Below, piece after piece: positions 30,142 through 50,909 of a DNA stretch of 64,000 bases (its first letter is position 1; each line of letters begins with the position of its first letter). Source of the stretch: Escherichia coli (lineage in GTDB: Bacteria > Pseudomonadota > Gammaproteobacteria > Enterobacterales > Enterobacteriaceae); NCBI RefSeq assembly GCF_003334385.1, contig NZ_QOWN01000007.1, one strand, 5' to 3'. A program made the position numbers and the translations under genes. The notes under the pieces are model-generated. The model was given only the letters and a program-made list of their open reading frames with translations. It had not been told where the DNA came from and ran no database searches.

Positions 30142-30942
30142 TCACCACCAGGCGTGGAAGTGGTGAACCGGACCAATACCGTGACCAACTTCCAGCGTGT
30201 CGGCCTGGGCTAACGCCGATGAAAGCCAGCTTTTTGCCTCCTGTACGGTGTCAGCCCAGTTTGTATGGCGCGGGCGTAGTGCAGCCAACGCCGCAGAGAG
30301 TGTACAACCAGTGCCGTGGGTGTTTTTGGTCATAATGCGCGGTGCGGTAAACCGTTGTTCACCCTCGCGAGTAAACAGCCAGTCCGGGCTTTGCTCATCA
30401 TCCAGATGACCACCTTTCATTAGCACTGCGCCACAGCCCATCGCCAACAGCGATCGCCCTTGTTCCAGCATTTCCTGTTCGTTGCGCGCGTGTGGCGCGT
30501 CGAGCAAGGCGGCAGCTTCGGGCAAGTTTGGCGTTATTAATGAAACCTGTGGCAATAATCGACTGCGCAGCGTAGCAACCGCCGAAGGTGAAAGCAGCGG
30601 ATCGCCGCTTTTTGCCAGCATAACAGTGTCGAGTACCACGTTTTGGATCTGATAACGTTGCAACCGTTCTGCCACCGCTTCAACAATATCGGTTTCCGCC
30701 AACATACCGATTTTAGTGGTATCGATTCGCACATCGCTGAACACCGAATCGAGCTGGGCGGCGACAAAATCAGGCTCAATGCGATACACCGACTGTACGC
30801 CACGGGTATTTTGCGCCACCAGTGCAGTAATAACTGAGCAACCATAAGCGCCAAGTGCCGAGAAGGTTTTAAGATCGGCCTGAATCCCCGCACCACCACT
30901 CGGATCAGTACCGGCAATCGTCAGAGCGTTAATTCGTTTCAT
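30142..30942 (-). CDS. thiD: Hydroxymethylpyrimidine / phosphomethylpyrimidine kinase ThiD (266 aa)
   Basis: ORF 30142..30942 (-), start overlapping the thiM stop. Confidence 0.9.
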
Positions 30943-31727
30943 GCCTGCACCTCCTGCGTCAATTGCCAGAGCGCATCAAGGAAATGTGGAACAAAACTGC
31001 CTGGCCCCTCGCTTCTGGCGACAGCGCGTTCTCCGGCTTGTTTCATCCAGTGACAGGCAGATGCGACATTTTCCAGCATATCGCCTGGTAAGGCACAACA
31101 GGCAGCGACAACCGCCGATAATGCACAGCCAGTTCCTACCACTTTGGTCATTAACGGATCGCCACCGTGAATACCAATGATACGATGTCCATCGGTAACA
31201 TAATCCACCTCGCCAGTGACCACGACGATTGCGCCAGTTTCCCGTGCCAGTGTTTGTGCAGCGGGTATCGCGTTAGCTGCGGCGTCAGTGGTATCCACTC
31301 CCCGTCCGCCATTAGCAATGCCAGCTAATGCCATGATTTCCGAAGCATTACCACGTATCGCTGCCGGTTTAAAAGATAAAAGTTCATGACAAAAATGGCG
31401 GCGATAATCGAGCGCACCCACCGCTACTGGATCAAGCGTCCAGGGTGTTTGAGAGCTTTTTGCTTGCTCAACGGCAGCACGCATCGCCTGTGCGCGTGGC
31501 TGCGTCAGTGTGCCAACGTTAATCAACAAGGCACTGGCGATAGCCGCAAACTGACTGGCCTCTTCGGTTTCGATAACCATCGCTGGCGATGCACCGAGCG
31601 CCAGCAAGGTATTGGCGGTAAAGGTTTGCACCACATCATTGGTCATGCAGTGCACAAGAGGGGAATGTTGGTGAAAAAGGTGTAACGCGTGCGCAGATTG
31701 CGCTGAACCCAGCAGGTCGACTTGCAT
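30939..31727 (-). CDS. thiM: Hydroxyethylthiazole kinase ThiM (262 aa)
   Basis: ORF 30939..31727 (-), starting MQVDLLG; preceded by a thi-box leader. Confidence 0.9.
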
Positions 31728-31850
31728 AGTTTGCTCCTGCCATAACGTGAAGAAGCAATGACCTGGTGGTCCGTGACTTCCCTACGCTGGCATTATCCAG
31801 ATCAGGTGATACGGGTATTTCTCAGCCTTCACGCAGAAGGGCACCCCGAG
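31728..31850 (-). promoter_or_regulatory. TPP (thi-box) riboswitch in the thiM 5' leader
   Basis: Minus-strand leader reads ggggtgcccttctgcgtgaaggctgagaaatacccgtatcacctgatctggataatgccagcgtagggaa..., with the conserved CUGAGA thi-box element; matches the thiM riboswitch as I recall it. Confidence 0.8.
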
Positions 31851-31949
31851 TCGTTTGGTTGCGATGATAAATCGCAGAGGAGGATGGTAATGTCCAGCGC
31901 ACGCGTTGTAAACGAGGAAAAACGGCAGTTTTACAATCGCGTTAATAAA

Positions 31950-32222
31950 TTATTTGATATATGAATCCAGCACCTTCAGAACGACATCCAGATCTTCTTC
32001 ACGTTTTAGCTCATCCCCCTGGTGAACGATGTGTTCCGTCAGATGACCTTTAATCACTTCCCGCATCAGACCGTTTACCGCGCCACGGATAGCAGCAATC
32101 TGTTGTAAAACTGCAGCGCATTCGTGCGGCTCGTCGAGCATTTTCTTGAGCGCCACGACCTGGCCCTGAATCTTACTGGCACGCGCTTTCAGTTTCTGTT
32201 TATCACGGATTGTATGAGACAT
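31950..32222 (-). CDS. rcnR: Ni/Co-responsive repressor RcnR (CsoR/RcnR family, 90 aa)
   Basis: ORF 31950..32222 (-), divergent from rcnA. Confidence 0.85.
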
Positions 32223-32270
32223 GGCAACACCTGGTTAACAAGAATATGAAAAATCATAGCACTATTAATC

Positions 32271-32305
32271 TACTGGGGGGTAGTATCAGGTACTGGGGGG
32301 GAGTA
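32271..32305. promoter_or_regulatory. Two RcnR operator sites (TACT-G6/7-N-AGTA) in the rcnR-rcnA divergent promoter
   Basis: tactggggggtagta at 32271-32285 and tactgggggggagta at 32291-32305; matches the known G-tract inverted-repeat RcnR operator. Confidence 0.6.
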
Positions 32306-32342
32306 GAATCAGATTGCCGAATTAATACTAAGAATTATTATC

Positions 32343-33167
32343 ATGACCGAATTTACAACTCTTCTTCAGCAAGGAAACGCCTGGTTCTTCATCCCCAGCG
32401 CCATCTTACTTGGTGCGCTTCATGGCCTGGAACCAGGGCACTCAAAAACGATGATGGCGGCGTTTATCATCGCCATCAAAGGCACCATTAAACAGGCGGT
32501 GATGCTCGGACTGGCAGCAACCATTTCGCATACCGCGGTGGTCTGGTTGATTGCCTTTGGCGGGATGGTGATCAGTAAGCGCTTTACTGCTCAATCAGCA
32601 GAACCGTGGCTCCAGCTGATTTCCGCAGTGATCATTATTAGCACCGCGTTCTGGATGTTCTGGCGTACCTGGCGCGGCGAACGCAACTGGCTGGAGAATA
32701 TGCACGGGCATGATTATGAGCATCATCATCACGATCACGAAGATCACCACGACCATGGACATCATCACCATCACGAACATGGCGAGTATCAGGATGCCCA
32801 TGCACGAGCCCATGCCAATGATATTAAACGACGCTTTGATGGTAGAGAGGTCACCAACTGGCAAATTTTGTTATTTGGCTTAACAGGTGGTCTTATCCCC
32901 TGTCCGGCAGCAATTACCGTGCTGTTGATTTGCATTCAGTTGAAAGCCCTGACACTGGGCGCAACACTGGTCGTCAGTTTCAGCATTGGCCTGGCGTTAA
33001 CGCTGGTCACCGTAGGCGTTGGCGCAGCAATCAGCGTTCAGCAGGTCGCAAAACGCTGGAGCGGATTTAACACTCTCGCTAAACGCGCCCCCTATTTTTC
33101 CAGTCTGTTGATTGGCTTAGTTGGTGTGTATATGGGCGTACATGGCTTCATGGGCATAATGCGATAA
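32343..33167 (+). CDS. rcnA: Nickel/cobalt efflux permease RcnA (274 aa) with a His-rich loop
   Basis: ORF 32343..33167; membrane segments and HGHDYEHHHHDHEDHHDHGHHHHHEHG tract. Confidence 0.9.
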   Translation: MTEFTTLLQQGNAWFFIPSAILLGALHGLEPGHSKTMMAAFIIAIKGTIKQAVMLGLAATISHTAVVWLIAFGGMVISKRFTAQSAEPWLQLISAVIIISTAFWMFWRTWRGERNWLENMHGHDYEHHHHDHEDHHDHGHHHHHEHGEYQDAHARAHANDIKRRFDGREVTNWQILLFGLTGGLIPCPAAITVLLICIQLKALTLGATLVVSFSIGLALTLVTVGVGAAISVQQVAKRWSGFNTLAKRAPYFSSLLIGLVGVYMGVHGFMGIMR

Positions 33168-50714: not shown

Positions 50715-50883
50715 TATACTCTAAATAATTCAAATTGGTCCGATCCGGCGCAACGTCCCAATGGCCTGGATTATAAATCTCATTATCTTAATTGCAACGG
50801 GGTCCAGCCGTGGTTATAATTCGTTCGTTGGAACACGATGTTGCACAGACTGTGGTGTTAGGCCTGAAAATAGTAAATAAAAG

Positions 50884-50909
50884 AACCTGCCTCACCAGCA
50901 GGTTTTTTT
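50884..50909 (+). terminator. Rho-independent terminator after yehK
   Basis: aacctgc-ctcacca-gcaggtt hairpin followed by ttttttt. Confidence 0.6.

Follow-up and report, generated by a model that had tools for sequence, protein, structure and literature searches.

The operator of the Ni(II)/Co(II)-responsive repressor RcnR is known from Escherichia coli K-12, where a tandem operator made of two TACT-G6-N-AGTA motifs was mapped in the rcnR-rcnA intergenic region (Iwig & Chivers 2009, J Mol Biol 393:514, pmid 19703465; Blaha et al. 2011, Biochimie 93:434; both as represented in later papers). The operator is common to rcnA and rcnR (Blaha et al. 2011, as cited), and the two-site statement is repeated in PMC7105576, in which the operator placed behind an unrelated promoter conferred RcnR- and cobalt-dependent control that was inducible by cobalt. 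Literature citing Iwig & Chivers 2009 assigns one RcnR tetramer to each site, with contacts at TACT and AGTA and a G-tract that tends to the A-form, and according to citing papers the binding of apo-RcnR and its release by Ni(II) or Co(II) have been published for the K-12 sequence. For Salmonella RcnR, the fit gave two tetramers per rcnA promoter DNA. A model of RcnR recognition co-authored by Iwig and Chivers (PMC5146963) combines shape selectivity and specific arm contacts with non-specific distal binding that 'might result in DNA-wrapping'.

Two further members of the CsoR/RcnR family offer a comparison. E. coli FrmR, a paralogue acting at Pfrm (Denby et al. 2016, PMC5146963), likewise has tandem type I sites, with a central GC tract between short inverted repeats, that overlap the promoter. 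The RcnR sites are distinguished by a pure run of six or seven guanines, TACT/AGTA flanks and a response to Ni and Co. The type 2 operators of Streptomyces lividans CsoR (PMC3902906) resemble the RcnR sites in being G/C-tract pseudopalindromes with GTA-containing arms, and CsoR is, like RcnR, a tetrameric four-helix-bundle repressor that reads DNA partly by shape. However, a CsoR type 2 site has two short interrupted G/C tracts and ~11 bp between its arms, is sandwiched by two tetramers and is bound by a protein carrying the RLXR motif, whereas for RcnR the tract is unbroken, a single tetramer binds each of two tandem sites and the motif is RASK, the counterpart in RcnR of the RLXR DNA-binding motif of CsoR (PMC3902906).

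Exploring a stretch of 64,000 nucleotides from an E. coli genome (hereafter the window), we found that positions 32223-32342 are exactly the 120-bp non-coding gap between divergent rcnR and rcnA, the start codon of rcnR lying on the complement at 32220-32222 and the ATG of rcnA at 32343. The rcnR gene (31950..32222, minus strand) encodes a protein of 90 amino acids, assigned as the Ni(II)/Co(II)-responsive repressor by its open reading frame, by NCBIfam and by the RefSeq annotation. This ORF matches the NCBIfam equivalog NF011613 over its full length with 197 bits (cut-off 138, E=4e-59); the second-best NCBIfam match, the model of the paralogue FrmR, scored 76 bits, which is under its own cut-off. 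The protein retains His3, Cys35, His60 and His64, the H-C-H-H metal ligand set, together with the RASK motif. By equivalog score and metal ligand set, the gene adjoining the gap encodes a true RcnR of the CsoR/RcnR family. On the other side, rcnA (32343..33167, plus strand; 274 amino acids; NCBIfam NF007454, 558 bits; RefSeq annotation) encodes the His-rich Ni/Co efflux transporter. Downstream of it lies rcnB (yohN; 33386..33724, plus strand), the co-regulated accessory periplasmic subunit. An NCBIfam profile search at E<=1e-3 gave no match to rcnB, and the gene is identified from what RefSeq annotates in the corresponding part of BW25113; in the mechanical ORF list the rcnB frame reaches upstream to 33206. 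All three genes are full length.

The control region (32223..32342) is 100% identical to that of K-12 BW25113, and so is a longer query of 271 bp (32150-32420), which was matched in 5,364 of 5,426 complete E. coli genomes, always between flanks annotated as rcnR and rcnA. Over the surrounding 6.3 kb there are 87 differences from BW25113, and thus the strain is not K-12. Locus, divergent genes and two motifs are those of the K-12 PrcnA/PrcnR operator, with no difference in the control region. The initial annotation had called the region intact in this strain, and the full-length genes, the retained RcnR ligands and RASK, and the K-12 control region bear this out. Elsewhere in the window, a TPP riboswitch (31762-31858, minus strand; Rfam RF00059, 71 bits) lies just past the 3' end of rcnR and upstream of thiM-thiD (30939-31727 and 30142-30942, minus strand). 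Matches were also found to the CyaR/RyeE small RNA gene (10952-11037, plus strand; RF00112, 100.7 bits) and to the OrzO-P antitoxin RNA (50834-50909, plus strand; RF02083, 99.2 bits), the latter suggesting that the strain has a zor-orz type I toxin-antitoxin locus.

Within the gap, site 1 (32271..32285, plus strand), proximal to rcnR, reads TACTGGGGGGTAGTA, that is TACT-G6-T-AGTA, and matches the published motif. Site 2 (32291..32305, plus strand), proximal to rcnA, reads TACTGGGGGGGAGTA, that is TACT-G7-AGTA or, written against the motif, TACT-G6-G-AGTA. The two are separated by the 5-bp spacer TCAGG (32286..32290), start 20 bp apart and have their G-tracts on the same (plus) strand; a repeat finder placed them in one direct-repeat family with 93% identity. 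Searching the window with the pattern TACTGGGGGGNAGTA returned these two sites as the sole matches in 64 kb even when two mismatches were allowed (0.21 expected); with no mismatch the number expected by chance was 0.00, as determined from 100 dinucleotide-preserving shuffles. Runs of six guanines taken alone are not over-represented in the 64-kb window (12 seen, 22 expected), indicating that it is the complete motif, present as a pair, that carries the signal. Two exact TACT-G6-N-AGTA matches thus stand in tandem inside the rcnR-rcnA gap, which is the arrangement of a type 1 operator. The motif of the published RcnR footprint, in the form in which citing papers give it, is the sequence of sites 1 and 2 and lies nowhere else in the gap. 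The coordinates and the pattern search agree with the initial annotation, which had described two near-identical TACT-G6/7-(N)-AGTA elements between divergent genes. Its estimate of about two helical turns for their spacing is fair, 20 bp being ~1.9 turns of B-DNA, and the flanking RcnR and RcnA genes together with the K-12 operator sequence uphold its view that the G-tracts fit the mode of recognition by RcnR. We concluded, with a probability of about 97%, that the two elements together form the tandem type 1 operator at which RcnR represses, by the mechanism proposed below.

To compare the operator across species, one genome per species was scanned, and 80 rcnR loci were recovered that span Escherichia, Citrobacter and Salmonella to Rahnella, Hafnia, Edwardsiella, Morganella and one Vibrio. 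The divergent neighbour is rcnA in virtually all of them, most commonly across a gap of ~120 bp (118-125 bp). Aligning 77 unique intergenic sequences (76 species loci and the window) and measuring identity to the window revealed a strong phylogenetic footprint: mean identity was 0.50 in the left flank, 0.93 in site 1, 0.39 in the 5-bp spacer, 0.998 in site 2 and 0.57 in the right flank. Further conserved islands are the two -10 elements and the AGG and AAGAA Shine-Dalgarno regions. Two sites are recognisable in 66 of the 76 species loci; exact TACTGGGGGGTAGTA serves as site 1 in 57 of these 66 and exact TACTGGGGGGGAGTA as site 2 in 63, the latter also in most loci with one recognisable site. 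The N of the consensus is accordingly not free in nature: nearly all species have T there in site 1 and G in site 2. Of the 66 two-site loci, 64 keep the 20-bp distance between site starts and 65 have a gap of 5 bp. The spacer is free in sequence but fixed in length across species, which points to a phasing constraint between two bound proteins. From this fixed gap we infer that the two RcnR tetramers may bind jointly or cooperatively; for cooperative binding, which the initial annotation had suggested, the invariant 5-bp gap is indirect backing.

The window carries the standard allele, and alleles differing in site number or tract length belong to other genomes. Intergenic gaps of 100-102 bp with a single G7-type operator, shorter by exactly one 20-bp unit, were found in Enterobacter sp. 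CC120223-11, Erwinia psidii and Edwardsiella anguillarum, and five Morganella loci have kept site 2 next to a degenerate site 1. Nine Kosakonia, Phytobacter and Enterobacter loci with gaps of ~142 bp (L049, L052, L053, L056, L057, L058, L063, L064 and L069) carry an extra AACTGGGGGGGAGTT (AACT-G7-AGTT), located 21 bp to the rcnR side of site 1 at about position 50 of the gap, which may be a third, variant RcnR site. Among E. coli, a perfect 20-bp duplication, TACTGGGGGGTAGTATCAGG, creates three tandem sites in 3 of ~5,340 genomes, those of EC26, N39 (NZ_CM165893) and N47; the different RcnA protein alleles of EC26 and N47 hint at independent duplication events. When E. coli genomes were searched with a one-site query, the 25 matches listed were all two-piece matches to two-site variants, in a ranking that does not separate single-piece matches. 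In Escherichia whittamii Sa2BVA5, the representative genome of its species, a deletion of ~150 bp has removed the two operators and the two promoters along with roughly 11 codons from the start of rcnA. It runs between two short direct repeats, AACACCTGGTT and AACGCCTGGTT (at 32226-32236 and 32376-32386 of the window).

Tract length also varies. At least 60 and up to 93 complete E. coli genomes, many of them O121:H19 (for example RM8352, 16-9255 and FWSEC0006), carry a G8 allele of site 2, TACTGGGGGGGGAGTA, in which the distance between the TACT and AGTA arms grows by 1 bp, and G8 was seen in one Enterobacter and one Morganella genome as well. Site 1 is G5 in 15 E. coli genomes, and single genomes have G5 with G9, G5 with G5, a T-to-G change in site 1 that makes both sites TACT-G7-AGTA, or a site 2 whose AGTA is short of one A; the tract-variant loci are those of E. 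coli 2012C-4606, RM8082, 25DN, CRE1493 and DFS.1. Such variants are what one would expect if the G6 and G7 runs were phase-variable tracts that switch rcnA or rcnR by slipped-strand mispairing, independently of any role as repressor sites. Yet they make up only ~2% of the ~5,340 genomes, the G8 allele looks lineage-fixed rather than flickering, and some of the singletons may be homopolymer sequencing errors. Moreover, tract lengths are the same in the 57 (site 1) and 63 (site 2) of 66 two-site loci counted above, whose spacers are randomised, and slippage leaves unexplained why the TACT and AGTA arms are conserved as well as the G runs are. We therefore regard slippage as very improbable and keep to the reading of the two elements as an RcnR operator.

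To place the operator relative to the promoters, we used published transcription start sites (TSSs). Table S1 of Kim et al. 2012 (PLoS Genet) gives a 51-nt sequence for each of three MG1655 TSSs, one of rcnR and two of rcnA, and all three 51-mers map exactly onto the window. The rcnR TSS (MG1655 2183841, 11 reads) falls at 32245 on the minus strand; the major rcnA TSS (MG1655 2183912, 25 reads) falls at 32316 and the minor one (MG1655 2183891, 12 reads) at 32295, both on the plus strand, the minor one at the first G of the site 2 tract. Upstream of the rcnR TSS, at -16 to -8, lies TGcTATGAT (32253..32261, minus strand), which probably acts as an extended -10 element and whose pattern TGnTATnnT is conserved in the 77-sequence alignment. 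The probable -10 element of the main rcnA promoter, TAGAAT (32304..32309, plus strand; -12..-7 of the TSS), is conserved among the species and shares bases with the AGTA arm of site 2. Numbered from the published TSSs, site 1 occupies -45..-31 and site 2 -25..-11 at the main rcnA promoter; at the rcnR promoter the two occupy -26..-40 and -46..-60, respectively. The operator sites thus overlap the core promoters of both rcnA and rcnR. As they lie over the spacer and -35 region of PrcnA and over the -35 region of PrcnR, promoter occlusion is the likely step of repression.

Other elements of the gap were considered and set aside. A generic consensus promoter scan missed both the extended -10 of rcnR and the TAGAAT of rcnA. 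Its proposals were instead TTGCCG-16-TATTAT, with its end at 32341, and, on the minus strand, TTAACC-18-TACAAT, with its end at 32209. These were rejected because their starts would fall inside or at the very edge of coding sequences and disagree with the experimental TSSs. An imperfect 16-nt inverted repeat (32259-32274 and 32302-32317; 75% complementary) brackets the pair of sites, and a TATGA-N4-TCATA palindrome (32245-32258) overlaps the TSS and -10 of rcnR. Neither is conserved across species and both are probably due to chance.

The same overlap with the promoters raises the question of whether the repeats are conserved solely as core elements of two divergent promoters, with no repressor involved. 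Site 2 runs into the TAGAAT of PrcnA, site 1 overlaps both -35 regions, and TAGTAT could serve as a -10 for the minor rcnA TSS; the overlapping promoter hexamers could hence be the source of part of the conservation. However, the G-tracts themselves have no sigma-70 role, and the most invariant bases are these tracts and the TACT arms, unlike any sigma-70 element. In addition, no promoter requires the 15-mer to occur twice, as it does here, and the transplanted operator brings an unrelated promoter under RcnR- and Co-dependent control (PMC7105576), so that an account based on promoters alone is exceedingly unlikely. We assign just as little weight to a G-quadruplex or another non-B DNA structure that would regulate transcription by itself. 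Although the non-template strand of rcnA contains two long G runs, the first G of one of them being the minor rcnA TSS, there are two runs only and an intramolecular quadruplex needs four, as judged on anatomy. Such a structure gives no reason for invariant TACT/AGTA arms or for a fixed 20-bp register; the literature, for its part, assigns the tracts a duplex, A-like shape that is read by RcnR, and makes regulation dependent on RcnR.

For the RcnR operator we propose the following mechanism, for which the literature supplies the binding of RcnR, its stoichiometry and metal response, the A-form character and the wrapping. In the absence of metal, one RcnR tetramer would sit on each TACT-G6-N-AGTA site, touching the TACT/AGTA inverted-repeat arms and reading the central G-tract by its shape. 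Set 20 bp apart on nearly the same face of the helix, the pair of tetramers would together cover the rcnA promoter from -35 to -10 as well as the -35 region of PrcnR on the divergent side, and would thereby exclude RNA polymerase from both promoters. Occlusion as the exact step of repression, and an interaction between the two bound tetramers, are suggested by this geometry. Non-specific contacts may in addition wrap the flanking DNA. Such wrapping would reportedly take in ~50 bp of flanking DNA, with a single negative supercoil. Binding of Ni(II) or Co(II) to RcnR, through ligands that include His3, Cys35, His60 and His64, would lower its affinity for DNA and so allow transcription of rcnA-rcnB, for efflux, and of rcnR itself.

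Together, the data indicate that the finding in the window is real and was correctly located and interpreted in the initial annotation, yet it is already known in detail for the identical sequence. The window shows that this strain possesses an intact copy of a well-characterised metal-responsive switch, a confirmation that is useful for annotation only. The comparative data validate the published operator model cleanly and independently, and what is mildly new, the cross-species footprint and the natural alleles of copy number and tract length, comes from other genomes. It is conceivable, though doubtful, that the operator array is a naturally tunable module in which site number and G-tract length heritably reset the threshold of Ni/Co efflux in different lineages. 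The rare alleles are ready natural mutants for how the number of sites and the spacing of half-sites set the threshold of repression.
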